Shown here: in pieces, positions 3,043-48,050 of the stretch | Numbering within the stretch: the first letter of the stretch is position 1 | Layout of the letters: every line of letters begins with the position of its first letter | NCBI GenBank assembly: GCA_020348865.1 | Contig: CP070754.1 | Coordinates: 808,612-861,834, forward strand | Length of the DNA stretch: 53,223 bases | Source: Candidatus Bathyarchaeota archaeon | GTDB lineage: Archaea > Thermoproteota > Bathyarchaeia > Bathyarchaeales > Bathyarchaeaceae | Direction of reading: 5' to 3' | Position numbers and translations under genes: made by a program | Notes under the pieces: model-generated | Seen by the model: the letters and a program-made list of their open reading frames with translations, nothing else | Database searches by the model: none | What the model was told of the DNA's origin: nothing

Positions 3043-3131
3043 CCCTAACGCCCTCTTGAACTACATATTTTATGGTGTCAAAGTTAAAGCACAACAAGAA
3101 TTTATGTTTATTTGGGCTCTCTTCCGTAATC

Positions 3132-18138: not shown

Positions 18139-20208
18139 CTACTGAGTACTTCTAAACGGTTTAAAAGGAATTCCCTCTCCTGAGTGGAATTTTGAGAACC
18201 ATTCAACCCAATGGAGACGGAGAGTGTGCACAAACACAACCAACCCTTCAATAATCATTACGAGGATTGTTCCCGTGACTACTATAGGGATGCTCTCAAG
18301 CGGGAAGTGACCATGGTCCACTCCGCCTAGCACCAGGAACATGTAGTTCATCGCGCTGTGAATGAGGCCTAGGGCCATTAGTCGACCGTAGGACATGGAG
18401 TGGCTCAGAGTCTCAGCGAAAACCTCAACGGTAAACCCAACGCCTTCCATAAAACCTTCAGCCATCGCAGTAAATCCAAGTATGAGCACTAGTGGCAGTA
18501 TGACGAGTCCCGCAAGCATAATATTGCCCTCAGCGAACCACTTGGAAATGTTTGATATGCCGCCCCAGTACACCCACATAGACATGCTGCCCCAAAGCAG
18601 CCACAACCAGCAGATTGGTATTGGAGCAAGTTTATGGTGTTTGTGTCTTATTTCGTTCAGAAGCCTCAGAACTAGCCCTAGACTTGTATGGATTGCTCCA
18701 ACAAGTATGGCGAACCTTAGGATTCTCATAGGCTCCTCTGTGGGCTCAAATCCACCAAAGTAAAAGGGTCCGATTCTACCAAGAGATATCGGGTGAATGA
18801 CACCTGATGGACCGAAAAACTCCCCAAAGAGGAAACCAAAGAATATGGCGGAAATCCCTAAGAACACAAACATCTCACCGCTGATAAGAAGGTATTGAAT
18901 TATGTCCCCTGCTTCCTCTAATTTGACCCTTCTACGAGCCAGAGTCAAGAGAATTCCAATTATTACGAAAATCGCGCCTTGTCCAACATCTGCAAACATT
19001 ATTCCGAAAAGCACAGGAAACGTTATTGCGAGAAGACGAATAGGATTGATATCTCCATAGGATGGATATCCAAACGCGTAAACTAGCTTCTCAAAAGCTG
19101 CAATATAGTTCGGGACTGGTCTGAATATTAATGGTAGTTTATCATCCTGAGCAGGCGACTCGTCTGCTATTATGCTTTGTCCATCGGTGGCTTTTTTTAT
19201 CCTTTCCGTGGCTTCTTCAACGTTGAATTCAGGCACCCAAGCCTCAAAATAGATAGTTTTGGCGCTTTTGACGAATTTTTCTTCTTCCTTTGCTATGCTC
19301 TTCTCCTTCTCAACAGTTTTTCGCAGAGTCAGAAGTGTTTTGCGTATCTCCTCGAGTTCGGTCTCTATCCCGATTGATTCACCTACTGCCCCAACAAGGT
19401 TCTTCAGCGTTGAGAGTCTTTCCATGAAAAGTCTTTCACTTTCAGTGACAGAATTCCTAAGCCCAAAGATCTTTCTGCCCAAGTCAATTTTGTCCTGGAT
19501 GATGAGATTCTTCATCTTTTGCATCAGTGCAAATTCATCTGTTATGCCCGTAGTCTCGGTCGCCTTTTCAATCTCAGACAGCCTGTATTCAACTTCAGCA
19601 AGAACCTCTGCTATCGGTTTCTCCAGTCTAACCTGTTCAACTTCTACTTCTTTTGACTTCACTCCAAAGGCTTCAATCAATTGGTCGATTCTTGAAGCAA
19701 GAGTTAAGCACTTGGAAAGGGTTTCAGCAGGCAGTTCTGCTAGTTTCTGCTCAACTTCAGCGAGAACCTCTGCTATCGGTTTCTCCAGTCTAACCTGTTC
19801 AACTTCTACTTCTTTTGACTTCACTCCAAAGGCTTCAATCAATTGGTCGATTCTTGAAGCACAAGCTAGGCATTTAGAAAGAGTTTCGACAGGCAGTTCT
19901 GCTAGTTTCTGCTCAACTTCAGCGAGAACGTCGCACACTGGTTCCTCTGTTATCGGTATCTTCTCTGAAGGAGGCCCCTCAACTGTTAGGCCAAGGTGTT
20001 CAAACGAAAGCTCAATTTTTGAAAGAAGGTCTGAGCATCTTGCCAGAGCTTCCGTTTGAACTACGCGGGAGACTTCAACTCCTTTGCTGATTTCCAGCTT
20101 TTCTGGCATATGAATAAACTGAACCAAACCCTTCTCGCCAAGAGACTCTACGACAGCGTCAACGTCAGTTTCAAGGATAATGGCTTTGAGCTTTCGTATC
20201 TCTGGCAT
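18139..20208 (-). CDS. atpI: A-type ATP synthase subunit I (a-subunit)
   Basis: 689 aa. Soluble coiled-coil N-terminal half. Polytopic C-terminal half with the conserved Arg helix ETLSHSMSYGRLMALGLIHS. Confidence 0.85.
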   Translation of the reverse strand: MPEIRKLKAIILETDVDAVVESLGEKGLVQFIHMPEKLEISKGVEVSRVVQTEALARCSDLLSKIELSFEHLGLTVEGPPSEKIPITEEPVCDVLAEVEQKLAELPVETLSKCLACASRIDQLIEAFGVKSKEVEVEQVRLEKPIAEVLAEVEQKLAELPAETLSKCLTLASRIDQLIEAFGVKSKEVEVEQVRLEKPIAEVLAEVEYRLSEIEKATETTGITDEFALMQKMKNLIIQDKIDLGRKIFGLRNSVTESERLFMERLSTLKNLVGAVGESIGIETELEEIRKTLLTLRKTVEKEKSIAKEEEKFVKSAKTIYFEAWVPEFNVEEATERIKKATDGQSIIADESPAQDDKLPLIFRPVPNYIAAFEKLVYAFGYPSYGDINPIRLLAITFPVLFGIMFADVGQGAIFVIIGILLTLARRRVKLEEAGDIIQYLLISGEMFVFLGISAIFFGFLFGEFFGPSGVIHPISLGRIGPFYFGGFEPTEEPMRILRFAILVGAIHTSLGLVLRLLNEIRHKHHKLAPIPICWLWLLWGSMSMWVYWGGISNISKWFAEGNIMLAGLVILPLVLILGFTAMAEGFMEGVGFTVEVFAETLSHSMSYGRLMALGLIHSAMNYMFLVLGGVDHGHFPLESIPIVVTGTILVMIIEGLVVFVHTLRLHWVEWFSKFHSGEGIPFKPFRSTQ
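19591..19940 (-). repeat. 162-bp (54-codon) in-frame tandem repeat inside atpI, about 2.2 copies
   Basis: Units start at 19591, 19753 and 19915 (partial). The first ~108 nt of units 1 and 2 differ at one position. Peptide unit: VLAEVEQKLAELP(V/A)ETLSKCL..ASRIDQLIEAFGVKSKEVEVEQVRLEKPIAE. Confidence 0.9.
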
Positions 20209-37125: not shown

Positions 37126-40059
37126 CTACCAGAATCTTCTTTTCAATGCGTTTCGCTCTGCTTCTATCACCAACTCGAAGAACCTGTTTGAAAGTGTCTT
37201 CTCCACCTTCAAAACTTCCTTCACATCACCAACCCGCAATCTACGCCCGCAAAAAGCTGCAATTGCCGGGAGACCAAACCTATCCACCAAGTTCGCTGTT
37301 TTGACAGCTCGCCCCCGGATTTTCTCTTCCTCTTTCGTCAGCCTCTCATCTTTCTTATCAATCAAGAACAAAGCTTGCTCCTCCTCCCCACGCAACACAC
37401 CCAACCTGCCAGAGCCACATCTCGGACAAACCGGATGCTCAGGCAAATCAATCACACGCAACATCTCCACGTAGTCCCAACAGCTGCAGCACACAAGAGT
37501 TCGAACTTCATTCAGCAATCTGGCTCTCGTTGACTCTATCAGAATCCGTTTCATACGCTCCGGCCGGATCAGATCGGTCTTCATGCTCATCTTCTCTATA
37601 CCAACTCGAGCAACAGGACTCGCCTCTCCCTCAGTTTCCAACTTGGCTACGGTAACTTCGCCGCTTCGAACTTCGCTCAGAATACGAAGTAAATGCTCTA
37701 AATCCAAGTCCTTCGTGAAAACCTCTTTCAAAGCCTCATCATAAATTGCAGTTCCTTCAAAACTTTTCATCAACTTCGAAAGACTCACACGACTGAAATC
37801 AACCCACTTCATCAAGGCCCCAAAACGACGGGCAACATGGACCATACGACGCTTGAAAATGCCAGTCCGAACAGCAGCCTTCGCTAGAAGATCCCGAACA
37901 GCCAACTCCTCTAGCTGACTCAACTCCCCAAGCAAAGCCACAATGCGTTCCGAAGTCGCCTGTCCCCCAGTTTGGACAAGAATACGATACGGATCGTGTT
38001 GAACAGCTACACCAGCTCCAAACTCCTCAGACAAAAAGTGTCCAACCAGCTGAGCCAAAGCACGATTCGCCAAAGAACCGAAATGGCAGTGGGCGATCAC
38101 GAAATCCTCCCAGTCCTCAACCAAAATTCGCCTGTCAGAAGGAACTAGGAAACCTTTCTGCACATGCTCAACTGTCTCCGCCAAAGCTCTCAAAATTGTA
38201 TTTCGGTCGGCTGGATATTCCTCTGTAAATCGAATAGCGATCTCTTCAGGCTGCGCTCCAACTTTTACCTGTTTTTCTACTTGTCCTCTTATTCGCCCAA
38301 CCTCTTGTGCTACCATAAAGGGAACAGGAATCTCTTCTCCGACCCAGCTTGGAATAGCTCCGGTCGGGTCGTCGACAGCTTTCACGTATATGTGGTCACC
38401 TGTCACATTCAAGATTTTCCATGGGGTCCCACGGATGATAAATTTCACGCTGGGTCTGCCGTATTCCGCCACAAAAGCTTCATCAAGGACCCCTACAGCT
38501 CCGTCCGAGGTTTCCTCTACCACTAGGTACTTCTTTTCTGCTGGAATCATGGACAGGTTCTCAAAGTAATACTCATACATAGCCTTCGTCCGGCGAGGCT
38601 TAATTGCCACTTTATCCTCAAACGAAACCCAAGCAAACCTTGGAAAACGCTGGTGCATGTACGCCAAGACTTTCTGAATGTCTTCCACCGTCAAGTCGGC
38701 ATAAGGGTAGGCGTTCCTAAACAAATCATGGATTTCATAGAAGTTCCAACGCCTCTTTTTCATTAACAATCCGATAATCTGGTGCGCTAAAGCGTCATAG
38801 GGTTTATGTGGAACGTCTACAGGTTCCAGGTCCTCCTCGCTAGCCATACGAGCGATAGTCATGGCCTCCAGCGTATCATCAGAATCCATGGTGATGATGA
38901 TTCCTCTGGCAGTCCGCCCTATTCGGTGTCCGCTTCTGCCCACTCGCTGTATCAACCGAGTAACCTGTCGAGGGCTCATGTACTGAATGACCATATCAAT
39001 GCGACCGATATCGATTCCCAACTCCAAAGACGAGGTGGCGACGAGTCCTCGCAGCTCTCCGCTTTTCAGCCCCCGTTCGGCTGCAATTCGTGAAGGCTTG
39101 GCCAAAGACCCATGATGAATAGATACGGGGAATTTTATGTCCCAAACTTTAAATCTACTTGCCAGCACCTCCGAGACAGCACGGGTGTTGGTGAAAAGAA
39201 GAACGGATTTGTGGCTCTCAAGGAACTTGCGGATTATGCGAAGACGGGCAGCAACCTCTGGGTGAGTGAAGAGCGTTGAAGCGAGTTCATAGTCTCTGGA
39301 TTCAGGTTTTGGGAAGAGTATTTTCAGCTTTGTGAGTCGGGTAACGGAAACCCTTACAATTTCAACATCGCGTTCATTACCTACAAGGAATTGAGCCACC
39401 CTCTTTGGGCTACCGATTGTGGCAGACAGGCCGATCATCTGGAATTCCCTTCCTGTGACCCATCGAAGCCTCTCAAGAGCTAGGGACAGTTGGCTTCCTC
39501 GTTTGCTGTCCGCCATCTCATGAACTTCGTCTACGATTACCCATCCGACGTTGCTGAGGTGTTGGCGCATCAATCTACCCGGCAGAATTGCTTGTAGCGT
39601 TTCTGGTGTGGTGATTAGCATGTCTGGCGGGCTGCGAGCTTGTTTTGTGCGCTCTTTCGTGTCAGTATCACCATGTCTGACGGCTAGTCTAATGTCTAGG
39701 TTGTTGCACCACCATTCGAGTCGTTCGAGCAGGTCTCGGTTTAATGCTTTCAGTGGTGTAATGTACAGAATGTTGATTCCGCGTGGTCTCTCAGCTTTCT
39801 TGATAAGCATGTTGAGGACCGGTAGAACAGCTGCTTCGGTTTTTCCTGTGGCTGTCGGCGATATAAGAAGAACATTTTTTCCTTCCAAAATCTTCGGCAT
39901 AGTCTTCTTCTGAGGCTCTGTTGGAGCCTTGAATCCTCTCTGTTCTATCAATCGGCGAATAGGTTTGAGTAGGTTCTTGAAAGGGTTGTTCAGATTTTCG
40001 TTCAAGAAGGCCAGCAGCCTGGAAGCACAGAAGGATAGAACGAAAGCGTGTAAAAGCAT
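37126..40059 (-). CDS. lhr: Lhr-type large DEAD/DEAH-box helicase
   Basis: 977 aa. Motifs SPTATGKTEAA, DEVH, GLSATIG, HHGSL and QRVGRSGH. Long C-terminal domain with a CxxC...CPRCG zinc ribbon. Alternative TTG start at 40005. Confidence 0.85.
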   Translation of the reverse strand: MLLHAFVLSFCASRLLAFLNENLNNPFKNLLKPIRRLIEQRGFKAPTEPQKKTMPKILEGKNVLLISPTATGKTEAAVLPVLNMLIKKAERPRGINILYITPLKALNRDLLERLEWWCNNLDIRLAVRHGDTDTKERTKQARSPPDMLITTPETLQAILPGRLMRQHLSNVGWVIVDEVHEMADSKRGSQLSLALERLRWVTGREFQMIGLSATIGSPKRVAQFLVGNERDVEIVRVSVTRLTKLKILFPKPESRDYELASTLFTHPEVAARLRIIRKFLESHKSVLLFTNTRAVSEVLASRFKVWDIKFPVSIHHGSLAKPSRIAAERGLKSGELRGLVATSSLELGIDIGRIDMVIQYMSPRQVTRLIQRVGRSGHRIGRTARGIIITMDSDDTLEAMTIARMASEEDLEPVDVPHKPYDALAHQIIGLLMKKRRWNFYEIHDLFRNAYPYADLTVEDIQKVLAYMHQRFPRFAWVSFEDKVAIKPRRTKAMYEYYFENLSMIPAEKKYLVVEETSDGAVGVLDEAFVAEYGRPSVKFIIRGTPWKILNVTGDHIYVKAVDDPTGAIPSWVGEEIPVPFMVAQEVGRIRGQVEKQVKVGAQPEEIAIRFTEEYPADRNTILRALAETVEHVQKGFLVPSDRRILVEDWEDFVIAHCHFGSLANRALAQLVGHFLSEEFGAGVAVQHDPYRILVQTGGQATSERIVALLGELSQLEELAVRDLLAKAAVRTGIFKRRMVHVARRFGALMKWVDFSRVSLSKLMKSFEGTAIYDEALKEVFTKDLDLEHLLRILSEVRSGEVTVAKLETEGEASPVARVGIEKMSMKTDLIRPERMKRILIESTRARLLNEVRTLVCCSCWDYVEMLRVIDLPEHPVCPRCGSGRLGVLRGEEEQALFLIDKKDERLTKEEEKIRGRAVKTANLVDRFGLPAIAAFCGRRLRVGDVKEVLKVEKTLSNRFFELVIEAERNALKRRFW

Positions 40060-40131
40060 TTTGGAAATCTAAAGCATTTAGGTACCTCGCACGCGCACTA
40101 CAAAAAGACTGTAGTTCTTTTTCCATGGATT

Positions 40132-40165
40132 GTGGAGATGTCCCCCTCATTTCCCCTCTTTTTTT
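40132..40165 (+). repeat. intergenic C-rich/oligo-T element, copy 1
   Basis: GTGGAGATGTCCCCCTCATTTCCCCTCTTTTTTT, between the lhr start and the nitroreductase start. Confidence 0.8.
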
Positions 40166-40225
40166 ATATGCATTGTTACAAAAGTCTTAAGCAATCACTC
40201 CGAAATTAGATGAAAAACATGGACG

Positions 40226-40852
40226 GTGAATTACTATATGGAGTTCTATGAAGCTGTCAATAAGCGACGAAGTGTCAGGGAGTTTCAGACAAGACCTGTG
40301 GAAAAAGGGAAACTTCGGAGAGTCTTAGAAGCAGGGCTAAAAGCCCCTTCCCACAATCATCTGAGAGAATGGGAATTCATTCTCATCAAAGACATTGATA
40401 GACGGAAAGAAGTGTTTAAGTTAGAGCCAAGCAGTCGTGATTTTACAGATGAGATGGTGAACGAATGGGCTAAGGATGCACCGAATGAATCAGTGAAAGA
40501 TATGTATCTTAAGGCTTTGCCAATCCAGAGAAGAATGCTGATGAATGCACCTGAACTGCTTGTAGTCTGTTTTCGATTGAAAAAAACCCTTAAGGAGTGT
40601 AGGACACTTTTTGACCTGAATTGCTTTGCTTCTGTGTGGGCTTGTATCGAGAATATTCTGCTAGCAATGGCAGCAGAGGGCTTGTATGGTGTGACCAAAA
40701 TACCCTACGAGACTATTTCCCTCAAAAAAGCATTGCGTCTTCCAGAGGATTACGAGGTTGCAGCCATAATCCCCATAGGATACCCCGAAGGTCATTTGGT
40801 GAGGCAGAAAACGGTCTCGCTACAGGAAAAAACGCATCATGACAAGTGGTAA
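40226..40852 (+). CDS. nitroreductase-family protein
   Basis: 208 aa. FYEAVNKRRSVREFQTRPVE...LEAGLKAPSHNHLREWEFILIKD. Confidence 0.8.
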   Translation: MNYYMEFYEAVNKRRSVREFQTRPVEKGKLRRVLEAGLKAPSHNHLREWEFILIKDIDRRKEVFKLEPSSRDFTDEMVNEWAKDAPNESVKDMYLKALPIQRRMLMNAPELLVVCFRLKKTLKECRTLFDLNCFASVWACIENILLAMAAEGLYGVTKIPYETISLKKALRLPEDYEVAAIIPIGYPEGHLVRQKTVSLQEKTHHDKW

Positions 40853-41580
40853 TACTCACATATATGCGAAAAGGAACGTTGTGTAATTCAATGATAATGA
40901 GGTCAGAACGTATGAAAGAGAGTGGATATACAGAAGGACAAGTGCTTGATCTGGCCAGAAGAGCTTACGAAGAGGGAACCGCTAGCTTTGACGTTGCCCC
41001 AGAGAAATGTGCTCTACTCGTCATTGATATGCAAGATGAGTTTGTTAAACCAAACTGGACACCGGATTGGGTTCCAGAAGCAACTAGACAAGTCCCACAC
41101 ATCAAGAGACTCATAGAACATTGTAGAAAAAAGGGGATACCCGTCATCTTCACCGTATATTCAAAGACACACAAATGTCTTGACCGCCCAAAAACCGGTC
41201 CTTTGATGCCTGGGCGCTACTCAGATCTGGAAGTGGACAGGTCGAGGTTTTTTGTGGAAGGCCATGTTTGGCATGAACTTGCACCAAGGGATGATGAAAT
41301 AGTAATCCACAAACCCTCCTATGGCGCTTTCTATGATACTCCGTTAGAGACCATTCTCAAAAATCTTGGAAAAGATACCGTCATAATCTGTGGAACGATA
41401 ACAAACTATTGCTGCGGGACTACAGCTCGGCAAGCCTACGAAAGAAGCTTCAAAGTCGTGTTCGGAAGCGACGTAACGTCATCCGACGTTCCGGATATGC
41501 AGGAACCTGAATTGAAGATGTTGAGGAAGGGGTTTGCAAAGGTTCTGACTGCTGATGAGATCATAGAAATGTTGGAATAA
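40846..41580 (+). CDS. isochorismatase-family cysteine hydrolase
   Basis: CALLVIDMQDEFV and VIICGTITNYCCGTTARQAYE blocks. The likely start is ATG 40912, preceded by GAGGT. Confidence 0.8.
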   Translation: MVILTYMRKGTLCNSMIMRSERMKESGYTEGQVLDLARRAYEEGTASFDVAPEKCALLVIDMQDEFVKPNWTPDWVPEATRQVPHIKRLIEHCRKKGIPVIFTVYSKTHKCLDRPKTGPLMPGRYSDLEVDRSRFFVEGHVWHELAPRDDEIVIHKPSYGAFYDTPLETILKNLGKDTVIICGTITNYCCGTTARQAYERSFKVVFGSDVTSSDVPDMQEPELKMLRKGFAKVLTADEIIEMLE

Positions 41581-41778
41581 ACTGGCGTCTACTTGCGTGT
41601 ACGGCGTCTACGGGATACATTTGCCGAAATGTACCATCACATTGTTGCTGAACATTCTGTTTTGGAAACGATCCCTCTTTTTTCCGTAGGATGCATAAAT
41701 GTGAAGATATCTAGAGGATTGTTCCAGAAACGAAAAATACTCAGAGCACACTTAGTTTCATATGGAACAGTGAACGGA

Positions 41779-42318
41779 ATGAGACTGCAGGCAGTTCTAG
41801 GAATATTCATGGCAATGTTTCTTATCAACATTGTAAGCGTGATGCCCGTTTCTGCCCGACCAACGGTTGGAAGTGGCGCTTTCACTGCTTCGTATATGAA
41901 ATACTACCCACCAGACTTCGGTGCCAACGCATATTATGGCGATGACATGTGTTTGGAGTACACGGTCACAGTTCATTGGACTAGCATAACTTACTTGAAT
42001 GGTGATGTCCGACAGACCCTTACGGCAAGTGGAACCGTAGACGTTTACTACTTGACAAATCTGACTAACTCGATAGACACAAGAAGCTGTTCAGCTTCAT
42101 TGAGTTTCTATGATGCGGGAGGAGACGCTTGCATTGGGGAAGCAGGAGCCTTCTATGAGGTTGACTGGGATCCTTCATCATTGCAGAAGATGGAAAGACT
42201 CCATCACCTTCATCAAGTTTCAGGCGTCTACGTACGCATAGCTTGGATACGGAACGGGGTAGGATGGGGAAAAGCGGTTGCGTTCACCCACCCCCCAACA
42301 ATTTTGATAGTGGACTAA
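41779..42318 (+). CDS. hypothetical secreted protein
   Basis: The ORF is open from 41593, but ATG 41779 gives a signal-peptide-like N-terminus (MRLQAVLGIFMAMFLINIVSVMPVSARP). No family recognised. Confidence 0.5.
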   Translation: MRLQAVLGIFMAMFLINIVSVMPVSARPTVGSGAFTASYMKYYPPDFGANAYYGDDMCLEYTVTVHWTSITYLNGDVRQTLTASGTVDVYYLTNLTNSIDTRSCSASLSFYDAGGDACIGEAGAFYEVDWDPSSLQKMERLHHLHQVSGVYVRIAWIRNGVGWGKAVAFTHPPTILIVD

Positions 42319-42364
42319 CGAGCACACTACGAAAAGACCATAGAAAGTTTTTTTTCCATGTGCA

Positions 42365-42396
42365 GTGGTGACGTCCCCCGCAATTCCCCTCTTTTT
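42365..42396 (+). repeat. intergenic C-rich/oligo-T element, copy 2
   Basis: GTGGTGACGTCCCCCGCAATTCCCCTCTTTTT, 47 nt after the stop at 42318. Confidence 0.8.
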
Positions 42397-42519
42397 CTAT
42401 GCTGTTGTTCGCTTCATAGCGAATGTATGCATGTTATAGAACTTTCTTTCTCAAATCTTAACTACAAGTTCCAGTATTGAATGATGTGATAATAGAGGGA
42501 GAATGGAGATGATGATGAA

Positions 42520-43854
42520 ATGATAGGAACTAAAGTAGTAAAAGCTGTGATCCTATTGCTTATACTCGGCGTCTTGCCTAGCACCACCCTTGTTATGCCT
42601 GTATCGGCCACTCCAGACTTTGTGTGGGCCGTTTGTGCTGCGGAAGAACCTACAATTCTTACAGGTAGCGCTGGAGGTGATTTCTACCAGGAAAATGGTC
42701 AGCAGTACATGCGAGTGGATGTTAATTATGGCATTGTAGGCTGGTCTATCCTTTGGACAGGTGTGATTCCCTTTGCAATAGGTAAGGAATTCGACATAGT
42801 CGAGTCGGATGCTCCTAGTGTAGTACATCACGTAGATGGTCCATGGTGGACGAATCCGTTCGTTCCCATACAGGGGGAGCAATCCTGCGCCACTGGCCCC
42901 CTAATAATTTCCCCCATCGGAATGGAATCATTCTATGTTATATGCCAGAGAATAGACTATGGAAGCGATATAGCGTGGTCTCAACTCGGTGCAGTCTTAT
43001 ATACGGGCTATCCTGTAGCTTGGGACTATGACTTTCAAGTATTAGATCTCCCTGGAGATGCAGGAATATCTGGCGATGCGGGTGATACCTTCAATGATGC
43101 AACTCCGATAAGTCTAGGTCACCATGGGGGAGGTGCAGACAAAGACAATGACCCAGACGATTACTATAGGTTCAACGTAGATTCGGGGCGGCGATTATAT
43201 ATAGGAATGACACCACCGAGCCCTTATGACTACGACCTCTACCTTTACGATCCTGCGGGTACTCTGAAGGCGTCTTCAGCCAACACCGGATCTGCATCTG
43301 AATACATCCAGTTCGACACAGACTCTTCAGGTGATTGGAGAGTCCGAATCAGAGTATGGAGCTACGGTGGAGTTGGATTATATTCTTTCTACGTTTCAGC
43401 TGGTGGCGGAGGTGGATGTCCTGTGCTCTCAGTTTACAACGGAACAGGATACGTTGAAGAGGGATTACTCGACATACACAACCCTGATGACATAGATGAA
43501 ATCACAAGCCATACTCTAATCCATACACCTGGACCTGTGGAAAACAGATACTTGCTGCGGCTGACAGAGCATCCCCAGACCTACAGTCACCTGGACCAGG
43601 TGCGACTATTCGCCATGTTGACGAACGGAACTGAAGTCAAACTGCCGTTGGTTTCGGCCATTCATTCAGAAGATGGAACTGTTAAGCAGGAACTGCTTGT
43701 GAGCGACGACGTGAGAGCGGTCATGTTAGGGGAAGACTGGAACAACGGCACAAGCCAATATATAGACCTAAAGTTTGTAGCGCCAGAAGAACTTGAAATC
43801 GAAACGTTCACATTCATCATTGAAGGACACAACAAACCTTTGAAAATTCCTTAG
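42520..43854 (+). CDS. secreted protein with a pre-peptidase C-terminal (PPC)-like beta domain
   Basis: Signal peptide MIGTKVVKAVILLLILGVLPSTTLVMPVSA. Central block DPDDYYRFNVDSGRRLYIGMTPP..YDYDLYLYDPAGTLKASS...GDWRVRIRVWSYGG is typical of PPC domains. A Gly5 linker precedes an unassigned C-terminal domain. Confidence 0.7.
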   Translation: MIGTKVVKAVILLLILGVLPSTTLVMPVSATPDFVWAVCAAEEPTILTGSAGGDFYQENGQQYMRVDVNYGIVGWSILWTGVIPFAIGKEFDIVESDAPSVVHHVDGPWWTNPFVPIQGEQSCATGPLIISPIGMESFYVICQRIDYGSDIAWSQLGAVLYTGYPVAWDYDFQVLDLPGDAGISGDAGDTFNDATPISLGHHGGGADKDNDPDDYYRFNVDSGRRLYIGMTPPSPYDYDLYLYDPAGTLKASSANTGSASEYIQFDTDSSGDWRVRIRVWSYGGVGLYSFYVSAGGGGGCPVLSVYNGTGYVEEGLLDIHNPDDIDEITSHTLIHTPGPVENRYLLRLTEHPQTYSHLDQVRLFAMLTNGTEVKLPLVSAIHSEDGTVKQELLVSDDVRAVMLGEDWNNGTSQYIDLKFVAPEELEIETFTFIIEGHNKPLKIP

Positions 43855-43973
43855 TAAACTAACAAAGAACAATGACCTCCCCAAATCTCCTTTTTGTGTT
43901 TAATATCAAGCCTACACGAAAGCAGATGCTGGTTTCTTCTAGAAACCCTAGATTTCCGGGATTTCGCAGTCGA

Positions 43974-44005
43974 GTGGAGATATCCCCCGCAATTCCCCCT
44001 TTTTT
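43974..44005 (+). repeat. intergenic C-rich/oligo-T element, copy 3
   Basis: GTGGAGATATCCCCCGCAATTCCCCCTTTTTT. Confidence 0.8.
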
Positions 44006-44132
44006 CTTCTTTTCCTCAAAATCACATACAGACAAGCAAAGAGATTGAGAAAATCAAACGAATCTACGACAAGGCTAACCTCAAAGTGTTATCTTAACCC
44101 GCCCGCATTCTGAACGAAAGATACAAGCCAAA

Positions 44133-44726
44133 TCAATCTTCTTCCATGAGTTGCTCATACTCATCTTTCAAGTGCTTCTCTTCTTCGCTCAGCTTCTCAT
44201 ATTCTTCTTCAGTGGGTTCCTGATGCTCTTCCTTTGAAAGCTTCTCTTTTCTCTCTGAAATCCGCTTCTTTCCAAAGTAAGCTTTCACCTCTGGTCTTGT
44301 CAAAGAATAAATCACTACAATACTCAGAACGATGTCAGCCACATCCATAAGGCGGTGCCCAAACCCTGCAACAATCATCGCAACGAGTGATACGCCTCCC
44401 TGGACAAGTAAAGGAAGACCCAGCACCGAGATGACAATTCCCAGTATCCGAGCCCACCCCTTAGCCAGCAGAATGCCATAAGCAACGGACATATTGACCA
44501 AAGCACCAGCCAACGAAATGATAAACATAAGGAGAATCAGGATGACAAATCCTCCAGGTGTATATCCTGGTTGACCAGAACCTCCTTGCATGAGCATCCA
44601 CAGAGAAATGAATGTAAGAACGAAAAAAAGTGCGTGTGACCCATAGAAGAGCACGAGCAACTTGACAAGTCTTGGTCTCCCAACCAAGCTATGTCCCACT
44701 CCATTCATTTTCATAAAGTGAAGCAC
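44133..44726 (-). CDS. hypothetical membrane protein with an acidic C-terminal tail
   Basis: 197 aa. About 5 TM helices, then EEHQEPTEEEYEKLSEEEKHLKDEYEQLMEED. Confidence 0.6.
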   Translation of the reverse strand: MLHFMKMNGVGHSLVGRPRLVKLLVLFYGSHALFFVLTFISLWMLMQGGSGQPGYTPGGFVILILLMFIISLAGALVNMSVAYGILLAKGWARILGIVISVLGLPLLVQGGVSLVAMIVAGFGHRLMDVADIVLSIVVIYSLTRPEVKAYFGKKRISERKEKLSKEEHQEPTEEEYEKLSEEEKHLKDEYEQLMEED

Positions 44727-44868
44727 CCATTTCTTTCACTAATGAATGAAGCACACTTAAGATTTGGGTAATCTGCGTTCAGAATCTGTTGAACTCATGC
44801 GACTGTTAGCTCATTTATGGTGAATCTGATACTACTGAAGCGGCAGCGTCTGTTCTAACGTTCCTACT

Positions 44869-44900
44869 GTAGAGATATCCCCCGCAATTCCCCATTTTTT
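44869..44900 (+). repeat. intergenic C-rich/oligo-T element, copy 4
   Basis: GTAGAGATATCCCCCGCAATTCCCCATTTTTT. Confidence 0.8.
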
Positions 44901-44957
44901 GCAAGTATCCTAACATGGATTCGAATAAGGTCAAGATTTCCATAATTTTCTTATCAC

Positions 44958-45749
44958 ATGAAATATCGAACCCGAAAAAATTTAAGAATAGAATCTAGGT
45001 TTTTCGTCAGGGTGTGTTGTTGCTTGCCTCCTATTTTCGGTAGAAAGAGAGAGCCTAGAGATGTCTTTGACGAACATATGAAAAAAGCAGATGAGCTCTG
45101 GAAATCCCCAAGTGGATTGAAAACCTCAGAGTGTAAGAAGATTATGAAACACATTGAGAAAGCACTAGAGATTGCAGGAACAGTTGAGGTAGATCAGGAA
45201 GATATTGTTCGGCTCTGGGCTAGGAAGGGGAGTCTTTTCCTCACGGTCTATCGAAGATTGGATGATGCGCTGGAATGTTACGACAAAGCCTTATCGATAG
45301 ACCCAGGACTTGCCAAAGCATGGATCAACAAAGGTTCTCATCTGCTAGATATGGGCAAACCTAAAGAGGCTATGAAGTGCATCGACACCGCACTGGAAAT
45401 CAACCCGAGATACGCCAAAGCATGGCTCAACAAGGGGGTGGCTCTGGAACAGTTGGGCAAACCTGGAAAGGCTATAGAATGCTGTAAGAGAGCACTGAAG
45501 ATAAACCCGAGATACGCCTTTGCAGGGGCAACAATGGGAGCTTTTCTGCTAAAGCTGGATAAGTTTGAGGAGGCTATGAAGTGCATCGACACCGCACTGG
45601 AAATCAACCCCATATCTGCTATCGCATGGTTCTACAAGGGAATGGCTCTGGAAGGAAAGGGCAGGCATGAGGAGGCTAAGAGATGCTTCAATAGGGCCAC
45701 ATACATAGACCCTAGTTTGCAGAAAAGGATAAAGATTTCATCTGATTAG
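44958..45749 (+). CDS. tetratricopeptide (TPR) repeat protein
   Basis: About five 34-aa units with the A..C(Y/I)..AL.I(N/D)P..A.AW..KG pattern. The start may be ATG 45078 (MKKADELW). Confidence 0.75.
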   Translation: MKYRTRKNLRIESRFFVRVCCCLPPIFGRKREPRDVFDEHMKKADELWKSPSGLKTSECKKIMKHIEKALEIAGTVEVDQEDIVRLWARKGSLFLTVYRRLDDALECYDKALSIDPGLAKAWINKGSHLLDMGKPKEAMKCIDTALEINPRYAKAWLNKGVALEQLGKPGKAIECCKRALKINPRYAFAGATMGAFLLKLDKFEEAMKCIDTALEINPISAIAWFYKGMALEGKGRHEEAKRCFNRATYIDPSLQKRIKISSD

Positions 45750-45783
45750 CTGAAACCCCGCCAAACAACACATCATTTAGTAA

Positions 45784-45817
45784 GTGGGCGATATCCCTCA
45801 CAAATCCCCTTTTTTTC
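45784..45817 (+). repeat. intergenic C-rich/oligo-T element, copy 5 (most divergent)
   Basis: GTGGGCGATATCCCTCACAAATCCCCTTTTTTT, 35 nt after the TPR gene stop. Confidence 0.7.
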
Positions 45818-45918
45818 TCTCCGAGGTTCAGATTAAGAAGTATTCCGAGTTTTTGAACTCTTACACCAAAACATATACGTGCATTGTATAAAGACTAGTT
45901 GAAGCCTATTAGAAGGGA

Positions 45919-46179
45919 CTACTTGGAAGATCCCAATTTTACTTTGGCTTGCTCAATCATTTCAACTAGATGAAGAGGAATAGGATCAACTTGCATCTCA
46001 AGCTCTTTGATCTTTCGTTTAGGAGACCGCTTGAGAATCTTTGGTGTAAGAATACTTGGTTGGCCAGATGTGCCCTCTGTTTGCTTAACAAACTGTCTCA
46101 CAAATTCTGTGCTCTTTATCAAATCTGGTAGCTCATCCTCAAAGAGCGTGAGATAAATTTTGTCGAGGCATTTCATCAC
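45919..46179 (-). CDS. hypothetical protein
   Basis: 86-aa ORF with protein-like composition. No motif recognised. Confidence 0.35.
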   Translation of the reverse strand: MMKCLDKIYLTLFEDELPDLIKSTEFVRQFVKQTEGTSGQPSILTPKILKRSPKRKIKELEMQVDPIPLHLVEMIEQAKVKLGSSK

Positions 46180-46368
46180 CAGAGTTACAAAGAGTGTTGA
46201 AGGATGCCGTCGCCTACTAGAAGCTGGATTTCAGTATGTTACAGAGCTTAAGGGCCTGAAAGTCTTCAAAAAGCCGAAATAGTACATGGATAATGTCAAA
46301 AAACCATGGAAAGTTTTTTATTCAATATCATTCCAAACATGATGAACGTTCATGATGGAGGAAAGCAT

Positions 46369-46539
46369 ATGGCAAAATGTCCAAATTGTGGAGCAGATGT
46401 TGCCAATAAAAGAAAGTCTTGGAAGATGGCCGGCCGCCCAGACAAAATGGGAAAGAGAATCGAGCTAACCATTGGTCTCTTCGACTGCCCCAAATGCAAG
46501 AAAACCTTCAGGACTGTCTTGGGCAAACAAAAGATCTAA
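46369..46539 (+). CDS. small zinc-ribbon protein
   Basis: 56 aa from ATG 46369, with GGAGG 8 nt upstream. CPNCG...CPKC pairs. The ORF track starts earlier, at 46306. Confidence 0.55.
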   Translation: MAKCPNCGADVANKRKSWKMAGRPDKMGKRIELTIGLFDCPKCKKTFRTVLGKQKI

Positions 46540-46673
46540 AGCACTCGTGCTGTTGTTGCCAAGATCAGCTAATAACCCCCTCCTTTTTATCTAGCCAAAC
46601 AATAACTTTTTAGCGTTCAACAACCAACAAGACACTTTCCAAGGATACCCTTAGGCTACGTAGCAAATAATCG

Positions 46674-47294
46674 GTGAAGCAATTGGAATTACGAGAGATA
46701 TTAAAGAAAGAATATGTGAAGACCGCTATTCTACTTGCAGTAGTAATCATTGGTGTTTTTGCTTTCTGGATTGGTCTGACAACGGCTTTGAAAACTGAGT
46801 ACCCAATGCTGGCGGTTGCGTCAGGAAGTATGGAACCTGCCTTGTACAAAGGCGATCTTATCATGGTTCAGGGGATAGCAGACGGTGGTGACGTTGTAGT
46901 CGGTCGGGATGTGGATGACCCACCCGGTGACATAATTGTCTTTCACAGCCCCAGGGTCCGCAGTGAGCTTATCGTGCACAGAGCTATAGGTAGTGAACGT
47001 AGGGGTGGAACGTGGTACTTTCAAACTAAGGGAGACGCTAACAGTGGTGCAGACAACTGGGATGGCGACTGGAGCACTGATTATGACCTTGCAGAAGAAT
47101 ATGTGATCGGCAGAGTTTTTGGCCAGGTATCGACTATAGGTTATATTCCATTGTTTCTGCGAGAGTTTTTATGGACTCCTGTCGGAATGATGCTAATTGT
47201 CACGTTGCTACTTGTTTTCCTGTTTTACGACTATCTTCCCTTGCCTTGGAAGAAGGACCGACTCGACGCCCCTGAACCAGACAAAGAGATCTGA
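46674..47294 (+). CDS. signal peptidase I, archaeal/ER (Sec11) type
   Basis: N-terminal TM helix. Nucleophile box SGSMEP, His box LIVHRAIG, then TKGDAN. C-terminal TM helix. Confidence 0.85.
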   Translation: MKQLELREILKKEYVKTAILLAVVIIGVFAFWIGLTTALKTEYPMLAVASGSMEPALYKGDLIMVQGIADGGDVVVGRDVDDPPGDIIVFHSPRVRSELIVHRAIGSERRGGTWYFQTKGDANSGADNWDGDWSTDYDLAEEYVIGRVFGQVSTIGYIPLFLREFLWTPVGMMLIVTLLLVFLFYDYLPLPWKKDRLDAPEPDKEI

Positions 47295-47489: not shown

Positions 47490-48050
47490 GTGCCGAAGGT
47501 TCAAGCCTCAATTAACATCGAAAACGTGGTTGCATCCGCAACTTTGGATCAAAGGGTTGACCTGAACGCTGTGGTCAAAGGCCATCCTGGAGTTGAATAT
47601 CGCCCAGAACAGTTCCCAGGACTTGTGTTTCGTCTGAAGAAACCGAAAACAGCTACTCTGATTTTCAATTCAGGAAAGATGGTGTGCACAGGCGCCAAGT
47701 CAGAAAAAGAGGCAAGAAGAGCTGTGATGAAAGTCGTGAAAGAACTGAAGAAGAGCGGAATAATAATCATCAGCAAGCCGAAACTGAAGATACAGAACAT
47801 CGTTGCATCGGCGGGTCTAGGAGGAAACATCGATCTTGAAAAAGCGACGTACGCATTGGGAAAAACTATGTATGAGCCTGAACAATTCCCTGGGCTCATC
47901 TACCGAATGGCAGAGCCCAAAGTCGTGATTCTTCTTTTCGCTAGCGGAAAACTCGTATGTACAGGCGCCAAACACGAAGAAGACGTTTACGAAGCAGTCA
48001 ACAAACTCCATCTTAGACTTGAAGACGAAGGCCTGATATATTACGAATGA
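47490..48050 (+). CDS. tbp: TATA-box binding protein
   Basis: 186 aa, GTG start. Two direct repeats: NIENVVASATL...PEQFPGLVFRL..P..TATLIFNSGKMVCTGAKSE and KIQNIVASAGL...PEQFPGLIYRM..PKVVILLFASGKLVCTGAKHE. Confidence 0.95.
   Translation: MPKVQASINIENVVASATLDQRVDLNAVVKGHPGVEYRPEQFPGLVFRLKKPKTATLIFNSGKMVCTGAKSEKEARRAVMKVVKELKKSGIIIISKPKLKIQNIVASAGLGGNIDLEKATYALGKTMYEPEQFPGLIYRMAEPKVVILLFASGKLVCTGAKHEEDVYEAVNKLHLRLEDEGLIYYE

Follow-up and report, generated by a model that had tools for sequence, protein, structure and literature searches.

Bathyarchaeia are among the most abundant archaea of sediments and, to our knowledge, their mobile elements have been little described. The DNA analysed here (the window) is a stretch of 53,223 nucleotides from a Candidatus Bathyarchaeota archaeon (contig CP070754.1, positions 808,612 to 861,834), in which a short non-coding sequence, named motif E, is found five times within an island of 6.2 kb. 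Several known systems invite comparison. Elements of the lambda and pNOB8 type, whose integrase remains intact, encode a PF00589 tyrosine recombinase next to one attachment (att) site, are bounded by direct repeats of a host-derived core, frequently target tRNA genes, and stack into islands which then decay; all of these traits are found again in the elements described below. Integron arrays and the clusters of attC sites without an integron integrase (CALINs) are also comparable, as they consist of co-oriented, short, recombination-associated sites with one to three unrelated accessory genes between them and no recombinase inside. The attC site itself is a 57-141-nt imperfect inverted repeat (R''-L''/L'-R') which folds as a hairpin. 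Among archaea, the pTN3-like elements of Thermococcales have their attB in the 5' half of a tRNA gene (PMC8371274), and the cryptic integrated elements of Thaumarchaeota are small and integrase-bearing, use tRNA, intergenic and gene targets, have short att repeats with a median of 17 bp and can occur in tandem (Krupovic et al., 2019, PMC6563490). Tandem stacking and the use of tRNA and intergenic targets are documented for archaea in both studies (PMC8371274, PMC6563490). The elements reported here are likewise small and integrase-bearing, with short att repeats, with tRNA, intergenic and gene targets and at times in tandem, in a lineage related to that of the thaumarchaeal elements.

Taken together, the data make it quite likely that motif E is the conserved cis-acting end sequence (attL/attP arm) of an integrative element family specific to Bathyarchaeia. 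The motif has the form GTGG-GAYRTCCCCCGCAWWTCCCC-T5-8, and all five copies in the window lie on the + strand in intergenic DNA, where none is expected by chance:

40132-40165, + strand: E1, GTGGAGATGTCCCCCTCATTTCCCCTCTTTTTTT, putative motif for the left end of unit A (attL side); direct-repeat copy a stands 5-10 nt to its left
42365-42396, + strand: E2, putative motif for the left end of unit B, with direct-repeat copy b to its left
43974-44005, + strand: E3, internal copy, preceded by GATTTCGCAGTCGAG
44869-44900, + strand: E4, internal copy, with GTAG in place of GTGG
45784-45817, + strand: E5, the most diverged copy, which has CCCTCAC for CCCCCGC and an insertion of 1 nt

A search with the 20-nt core GATATCCCCCGCAATTCCCC at up to three mismatches matched only these five sites in the 53,223 bases, and none of 100 dinucleotide shuffles of the window gave a match at the same threshold. 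A repeat finder recovered E as a family of its own with spacings of 2233, 1609, 895 and 916, and found that E1 and E2 share ~35 further nt upstream. E2, E3 and E5 stand 47, 120 and 35 nt past + strand stop codons, respectively, and E1 and E4 lie in divergent intergenic regions. Within the motif are a palindrome of 12 bp, GGNGAYRTCNCC, and a pair of ATCCCC-like direct repeats at a distance of 11 bp. An initial annotation of the window, made from its letters alone, had reported five intergenic + strand copies at these positions and none elsewhere, three of them after + strand stops and two in divergent regions, with a near-palindrome around GATATC; pattern search and repeat finder agree with it on the copies, and the palindrome is real. 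Its first three spacings also stand, and the last, given as 915, becomes 916 through the insertion in E5. The element of ~32 nt which it described is present, with a conserved block that is slightly longer, running from TGG (-4 relative to the G of GAYRTC) to the T-run (~+27), often with CTGTTT next. A weak sixth copy placed at 46572-46588 did not hold up, as it lacks TGG, GAYRTC and CCCGCAAA; what stands there, behind the Zn-ribbon gene, is no more than an oligo-T tract.

Apart from the 12-nt palindrome, no longer inverted repeat common to the E copies was found, and the inverted repeats seen around E1 and E2 were set aside as A-run/T-run complementarity. The predicted RNA fold of E was no better than that of shuffles on either strand (z -1.6 to +0.8), and no covariation or compensatory change was found among the copies. 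The lack of both fold and covariation fits a duplex-DNA site better than an RNA. Within the window, Rfam matched no family, ARAGORN called no tRNA, and none of the five copies has a tRNA piece beside it.

The copies of E fall in DNA which relatives do not have. Six contigs from relatives (L231-L236) were traced by means of their Lhr homologues, which are 70-86% identical and all carry the label Bathyarchaeota or Bathyarchaeia; an Lhr helicase and a TATA-binding protein (TBP) are among the archaeal genes of the window itself. In each of the six, lhr adjoins the genes for a small Zn-ribbon protein, an S26 signal peptidase and TBP, with a gap of 43-160 nt between lhr and the Zn-ribbon gene as against 6.2 kb in the window; positions 40074-46301 of the window therefore constitute an inserted island. 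When the relatives were compared with the window by blastn, homology stopped at 40066-40073 and resumed at 46302-46308. The unoccupied lhr/Zn-ribbon sites of the six contigs contain no E. The island and its host flanks are as follows:

37126-40005, - strand: left host flank, Lhr-type helicase of 959 aa (P0001), from a profile match and the database product
40074-46301, no strand: inserted genomic island of 6.2 kb with five E copies and eight cargo open reading frames (ORFs), missing at the orthologous site of relatives
46369-46539, + strand: right host flank, small Zn-ribbon gene, whose promoter is the proposed integration target
46674-47294: S26 peptidase gene, downstream of the Zn-ribbon gene
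47490-48050: TBP gene, downstream of the S26 peptidase gene

Further scans revealed that E is distributed across the lineage. One genome per species was scanned with GAYRTCCCYCNCAWWTCCCC, a pattern free of the T-run, and 110 matches were obtained, of which ~22 are Bathyarchaeia contigs. All ~22 carry the full TGGn-GAYRTCCCCCGCAAATCCCC block and then T5-8; the bacterial matches have no T-run and look like chance. A metagenome scan added at least 120 E loci, and after de-duplication at least ~149 unique copies were counted, all from Bathyarchaeia. E can be written as TGGNGAYRTCYCCCGCAAAYYCCC followed by T5-8, and its TGG is conserved at 91-95% though it lies outside the search pattern. No E was found in the remaining 47 kb of the window or in ~85 kb of orthologous DNA from the relatives. 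A viral origin was also tried, and the pattern had no match in IMG/VR. The ORFs flanking E show all four orientation combinations at similar frequency; given this random orientation and the rarity of E, it is therefore neither the lineage terminator nor the promoter or operator of a gene set. Searches of the E-bearing loci with Rfam found only ordinary tRNAs at the gathering score, none of them over E. Sub-threshold matches to transfer-messenger RNA in L130, where only an acceptor/T-arm fragment is matched, and to gyrA in L158 were dismissed as chance.

E is the sole DNA common to the units of the window and the other 128 loci. What stands directly upstream of its TGG falls into a few types: the antisense 3' part of a tRNA (variable loop, T arm, acceptor strand and CCA) at a fixed distance in 24/152 copies, the sense 5' part of a tRNA in ~10 copies and, in most copies, a transcription factor B recognition element (BRE)/TATA-like box or tRNA 5' fragment which points into E from 10-13 nt upstream. 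The 15-19 nt upstream of E3 (GATTTCGCAGTCGAG) are common to the E copies of L085 and L199. Wherever a locus has more than one E the copies are co-oriented (19/19 multi-copy loci), and no inverted pair was found among these 19. A transposon of the insertion sequence or miniature inverted-repeat type was rejected on the grounds that there is no inverted E pair and that the duplications are 19-55 bp long and host-specific, in place of terminal inverted repeats and a short target-site duplication.

Other recurrent sequences were observed around E. Alternating purine-pyrimidine tracts (GCATGCATGC, GCGCGCG) are enriched downstream, ~5-15 nt past the T-run in many loci, and peak at +30 to +40. They were found in 38/143 copies, where 16.6 would be expected and none of 200 shuffles gave more than 28. 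The window has such tracts at 40166-40175 (TATATGCATT) and 42428-42439 (ATGTATGCATGT). The tract of L085 encodes the start of the integrase Zn ribbon, and elsewhere they are non-coding. L138 contains three co-oriented units (oriented 56, 3338, 7754), each preceded by CCCGTAAAGCCGCATTTAYGTACAC, and two of its E copies are badly decayed; related upstream sequence precedes E in L029, L100 and L208 as well. This similarity among the four loci suggests another recurrent core type.

In each locus, a further occurrence of the sequence that precedes E was looked for. Direct repeats were found to bracket segments beginning with E, which starts 7-13 nt right of the left repeat:

L196, segment of 5.3 kb: tRNA-Val positions 1-23, 13 nt, then E; intact tRNA-Val at the right
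L111, segment of 4.8 kb: ~55-nt repeat made of the tRNA-His promoter and the first 16 nt of the tRNA
L207, segment of 4.1 kb: 19-nt BRE/TATA promoter repeat
L139 and L210, segments of 2.7 and 1.09 kb: a shared host promoter (AAACCYATACGAAAAGGTTTWTA) with two different inserts

The order of these elements is core, E, cargo, integrase, core. The integrase is the product of a + strand ORF directly left of the right repeat, which ends in ..GFEYV..DG..FRKRK followed by the stop codon. Longer versions of this ORF carry HxLRHWKAT (HTLRHWKAT)...LGH..NT..Y, and the protein matches PF00589 at 1.6e-23 through the catalytic RHR..Y region and has an IS1-type N-terminal zinc-binding domain. It is thus a tyrosine recombinase; against the integron-integrase model it scores 76 bits (cut-off 265), and against XerA 100 (cut-off 220). 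A weak cluster of flanking ORFs near E turned out to be this integrase, once its C-terminal tail was recognised. The 1.09-kb unit of L210 is bounded by direct repeats and has no integrase.

By tblastn the integrase was found in 31/129 E-bearing loci and was co-oriented with E in 31/31. It occupies one of two places: the right end of the element, or a position 50-100 nt upstream, where the core, often a tRNA fragment, separates it from E. The latter arrangement (L001, L112, L138, L146, L166, L198, L202, and L214) is that expected for attP or for a junction of stacked elements. The integrase family comprises 4,640 protein clusters at E<=1e-20, and every source-named entry among the 120 matches listed is from Bathyarchaeia; many of the integrase contigs are 1.4-1.6 kb long. 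Seen from the integrase side, an intact tRNA lies 45-55 nt past the end of the homologue (L237-L245), and 5' fragments of those intact tRNAs precede E in other contigs (L136, L171, L215, and L220). This check was partial, as the left ends of the L237-L245 elements lie beyond the flank sequence covered, in which no E was seen. No case of the same element at two different sites was found in the sample. The tRNAs near the antisense 3' fragments of L128 and L230 were considered as their intact partners and rejected, as they are different tRNAs.

Some single loci deserve description. A minimal element is found in L085 (3721-4948), where the integrase gene directly follows E and the whole unit is ~1.25 kb; a possible TTG start of the integrase stands at the end of the T-run of E. 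On the reverse strand of L177 (oriented 2585-2746), ARAGORN calls a tRNA-Pro(TGG) with a 76-nt 'intron' at 37/38, which consists of E, its T-run and ~40 further bases; the acceptor strands of this tRNA pair imperfectly. It looks like a solo E that stayed behind in a tRNA gene and may be removable as an intron. Should such solo copies behave as introns, a connection would follow between integrative elements and the way in which tRNA introns or split tRNAs arose.

With this architecture in mind, the island of the window can be read in terms of three direct repeats and one integrase remnant:

40096-40127, + strand: direct-repeat copy a (CACTACAAAAAGAC..AGTTCTTTTTCCATG), a degenerate target-promoter copy plus element right-end sequence
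42325-42360, + strand: direct-repeat copy b (CACTACGAAAAGACCATAGAAAGTTTTTTTTCCATG), at the junction of unit A and unit B
46157-46282, + strand: tyrosine recombinase C-terminus remnant of 41 codons and stop (..LLEAGFQYVTELKGLKVFKKPK), from ORF, tblastn and family hidden Markov model (HMM)
46298-46322, + strand: direct-repeat copy c (AAAAAACCATGGAAAGTTTTTTATT), at the right junction of the island

A repeat resembling the Zn-ribbon promoter is thus present three times: before E1, before E2 and at the right end of the island. Two blocks of copy a match copy b, at 13/14 (42325-42338) and 14/15 (42346-42360), and 42332-42353, upstream of E2, matches 46298-46319 at 20/22. From GGAAAGTTTTTTAT onward copy c is the BRE/TATA promoter of the Zn-ribbon gene, which is common to the relatives. 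On the evidence of these matches the island is composed of at least two repeat-bounded units, E1 to 42331 and E2 to 46297, the second of which holds three internal E copies. No direct repeat was detectable for E3-E5. The remnant was detected by tblastn (E=5.8e-5) and by the family HMM (E=2.3e-9, 46157-46279), being the sole HMM match in the window, and its stop lies 15 nt short of the right direct repeat, which is precisely the place of the integrase end in intact elements. Save for this 41-aa remnant, the units of the window have, as far as their sequence tells, lost their integrases. The island is thus, with good probability, a stack of mostly decayed insertions which the closest relatives do not have.

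From these features a mechanism can be proposed. The mover would be the tyrosine recombinase with its IS1-like N-terminal zinc ribbon, Phage_integrase catalytic domain and ..GFEYV..FRKRK tail. In the excised (attP) form the order would be the integrase 3' end, a 19-55-bp core that duplicates the host target, 7-13 bp, then E and its T-run, so that E would occupy the position of an attP arm. After recombination within the core, E would come to lie immediately inward of attL, and the integrase immediately inward of attR. Three kinds of target would be used: protein-gene promoters, with the cut directly behind the TATA box; tRNA genes at their promoter and 5' part; and tRNA genes at their 3' part. 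The host gene or tRNA would be rebuilt at attR from the element's own copy of the core. The five E copies of the window would then be the left ends of stacked elements at the promoter of the Zn-ribbon gene beside lhr. E itself is likely an arm-type binding site for the integrase, through its Zn-ribbon domain, or for a host factor; its palindrome, phased ATCCCC repeats, lack of RNA structure and fixed distance and strict orientation to core and integrase suit a protein-binding site in duplex DNA.

A second role is suggested for the T-run. As most cores are promoters or tRNA 5' parts, the copy of the host promoter left at attL would point into the element. With TATA at ~-20 to -13, transcription would start inside E, and the T5-8 found 10-18 nt further on would stop the transcript; in the circular form the same T-run would end the transcript of the integrase. 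The oligo-T tract of E is therefore likely a stop for transcripts from the displaced host promoter or tRNA 5' fragment.

Several findings weigh against this explanation. E is ~90% conserved and the integrases are 40-60% identical, which is unexpected for a site bound only by its own diverging protein and could point to a conserved host partner. E3-E5 and the neighbouring E copies of 16 other multi-copy loci share no upstream core, the E1/E2 pair of the window being the only neighbours which do. Repeated integration at one regenerated att site is therefore not sufficient, and recombination at or next to a resident E is also needed; new units might enter there by action of the integrase or through homologous exchange, for which 30-45 conserved bases are available. 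The left junction of the window is not clean, ~40-190 nt of the intergenic sequence of the relatives having been replaced. In L238, neither E nor a left repeat was found in the 10 kb upstream of the integrase, so that either some family members have no E or the elements are longer than the flank covered. Finally, we infer integrase binding to E and termination at its T-run from position and sequence form.

The same absence of common cores lends itself to another explanation, in which E itself is the crossover site of an archaeal gene-capture platform, analogous but unrelated to integrons. Small circles of E and cargo which have no integrase would be captured by an integrase supplied in trans and would enter at a resident E, in one orientation, instead of at the host core; the array of the window would then be a row of gene cassettes and not a set of decayed whole elements. 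The co-orientation of E in 19/19 multi-copy loci would agree with this, as would the upstream cores almost never common to neighbouring copies, the cassette-like size of the units (0.9-2.2 kb in the window and down to 87-173 nt between copies elsewhere), the 1.09-kb repeat-bounded unit of L210 without an integrase, the single integrase remnant at one end of the array in the window, the diverse cargo, which in the two other loci examined includes DarT-macro and an OLD nuclease as genes of defence type, and the fact that E is the only DNA in common. Such a platform is nevertheless considered unlikely because every mapped duplication is a host core, never E, and because E has no attC features, neither the hairpin nor the long imperfect palindrome. 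Moreover, empty sites contain no E, the integrase reaches 76 bits against the 265-bit integron-integrase cut-off and is not IntI, and the cassettes of the window have genes on both strands, some with apparent promoters of their own. The same cargo was never found between different E neighbours. It is also conceivable that E acts only as a transcriptional stop or insulator at the element edge, its C-rich tract and oligo-T halting transcripts from the attL promoter or those of the integrase in the circular form, with no part in recombination. T5-8 follows every true copy, even where the T-run was outside the search pattern; in addition, a BRE/TATA-like box or tRNA 5' fragment aims into most copies from 10-13 nt upstream, and E directly follows the integrase stop codon in attP-type junctions. 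Archaeal intrinsic termination, however, requires little beyond oligo-T, a need which would not hold 24 specific upstream bases at ~90% across thousands of diverged elements, and the copies after antisense tRNA 3' fragments have no obvious incoming promoter, which leaves a stop without any recombination role quite improbable.

The tRNA pieces beside E could also recall the split tRNAs of Nanoarchaeum or Caldivirga, in which two halves broken at a splice position make up one complete tRNA and no intact gene is present. Antisense 3' parts (T arm, acceptor strand, CCA) at a fixed distance in 24/152 copies and sense 5' parts in ~10, together with the complementarity by definition of E(+) and E(-), would allow E(+) after 5' pieces and E(-) before 3' pieces to serve as trailer and leader in trans-splicing. 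This was dropped when intact partner tRNAs and direct repeats were found, and it is hardly credible: in L196 and L111 the 5' fragments are partial duplicates of a tRNA which stands intact at the opposite element end, the fragments span ~1-23 or ~42-76 with no anticodon arm, and most copies, including all five of the window, have no tRNA piece. The A-run abuts E(-) and leaves no room for a leader promoter, a single E sequence serves all fragments in place of pair-specific leaders and trailers, and a literature search turned up no paper on the subject. A host regulatory element, be it a regulon operator, an ordinary lineage terminator or a small-RNA gene, would be in keeping with the palindromic core of E and with its overlap of a transcription start below the TATA-like box. 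This too is extremely improbable, given that E is confined to the insertion and not found in the other 47 kb of the window or the ~85 kb of the relatives, is oriented at random to flanking ORFs, has unrelated neighbour genes, and shows no Rfam family, fold or covariation. Of the four roles that the initial annotation had offered, the att-type site is thus supported by core repeats and integrase. The operator and the small RNA find no support in orientation, fold, covariation or Rfam, and the structure and covariation check of the aligned copies which it proposed found neither beyond shuffles. Its termination element survives as a possible property of the end of a mobile element and fails as a lineage terminator, E not being found at many gene 3' ends in the window or in the ~85 kb of the relatives. 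Nor is E missing from related genomes, as it is present across Bathyarchaeia. The alignment of the lhr-to-tbp interval which that annotation had put forward was the decisive check, as the 6.2 kb with all E copies are missing there in the relatives.

If E is an end sequence of integrative elements, the family differs from described ones in several respects. Compared with lambda- and pNOB8-type elements, whose known arm sites are element-specific, a non-coding block of ~30 nt, the putative integrase site, is near-invariant family-wide whatever the core; the integrase combines an IS1-like Zn ribbon with a conserved C-terminal tail, and many of the targets are gene promoters cut just after TATA. 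Like the pTN3-like elements, L111, L196 and L237-L245 duplicate the promoter and 5' part of a tRNA, and the rebuilt tRNA at attR would therefore be expressed from element-supplied sequence beside the integrase gene. In contrast to pTN3, in which an SSV-type integrase is split on integration (attP lying inside int), the integrase ORF here ends 15-55 nt before the core and remains whole. For the thaumarchaeal elements no common family-wide end motif was reported (PMC6563490) and the host lineage is another. In a limited literature search, neither a ~30-nt end motif common to a family, nor an integrase of this architecture, nor systematic insertion just after TATA was found described.

The use of E as a marker follows from these features. 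A ~30-nt motif which marks the left end of a large integrase family can detect borders, degraded islands and hot spots in fragmented metagenome assemblies, and it works where integrase-based detection fails through loss of the integrase, as in the window. The targeting would be unusual in that insertion occurs just past the host TATA box or in the tRNA 5' part, with the element's own copy replacing the promoter, and arrays may grow by recombination at E itself. For the window, the stretch from lhr to the Zn-ribbon and TBP genes represents recently acquired accessory DNA and not core genome. Its cargo consists of the following genes, those of unit A spanning 40226-42318 as listed; the rest of the eight ORFs of the island are small:

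40226-40852, + strand: nitroreductase, unit A (Pfam)
40846-41580, + strand: isochorismatase-family protein, unit A (Pfam)
41593-42318, + strand: hypothetical protein, unit A, with a hydrophobic N-terminus suggestive of secretion (ORF)
42520-43854, + strand: after E2, 444-aa protein with a pre-peptidase C-terminal (PPC) domain (Pfam)
44133-44726, - strand: after E3, 197-aa hypothetical protein which looks membrane-embedded, from its sequence and with no family match
44958-45749, + strand: after E4, TPR-repeat protein (Pfam)

Elsewhere the cargo includes DarT-macro, an OLD-family nuclease and a HAD hydrolase. In L128, L130 and other loci, the DarT-macro fusion (a single-stranded DNA ADP-ribosyltransferase toxin with an antitoxin-like domain) and the OLD-family AAA/TOPRIM nuclease are defence-type genes.

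The surroundings of lhr gave some further observations. Other Bathyarchaeia, in L199/L204 (Lhr on the - strand, then E at 3100, 3273 and 4090) and L087, likewise have several E copies and tRNA fragments upstream of lhr; the intergenic region next to lhr may be a recurrent integration hot spot. The local promoter type, seen at 46309-46322 of the window and ahead of many E copies, appears to consist of a purine-rich BRE and then a T-rich box (GGAAAG-TTTTTTAT or AAAAGG-TTTTTAG), which stands ~45-60 nt from start codons that have GGAGG in front of them. The longest Lhr ORF of the window has 977 codons, as compared with the 959-aa database product for the same contig (P0001), whose start lies 54 nt inside the ORF; the true start is probably at 40005. 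Apart from the island, the window contains at 19589-19947 a 162-nt tandem repeat, of which two complete copies, 94% identical, and the beginning of another are present; it lies inside a - strand ORF (18139-20208, 689 aa) and makes the product of this ORF an internally repeated protein.

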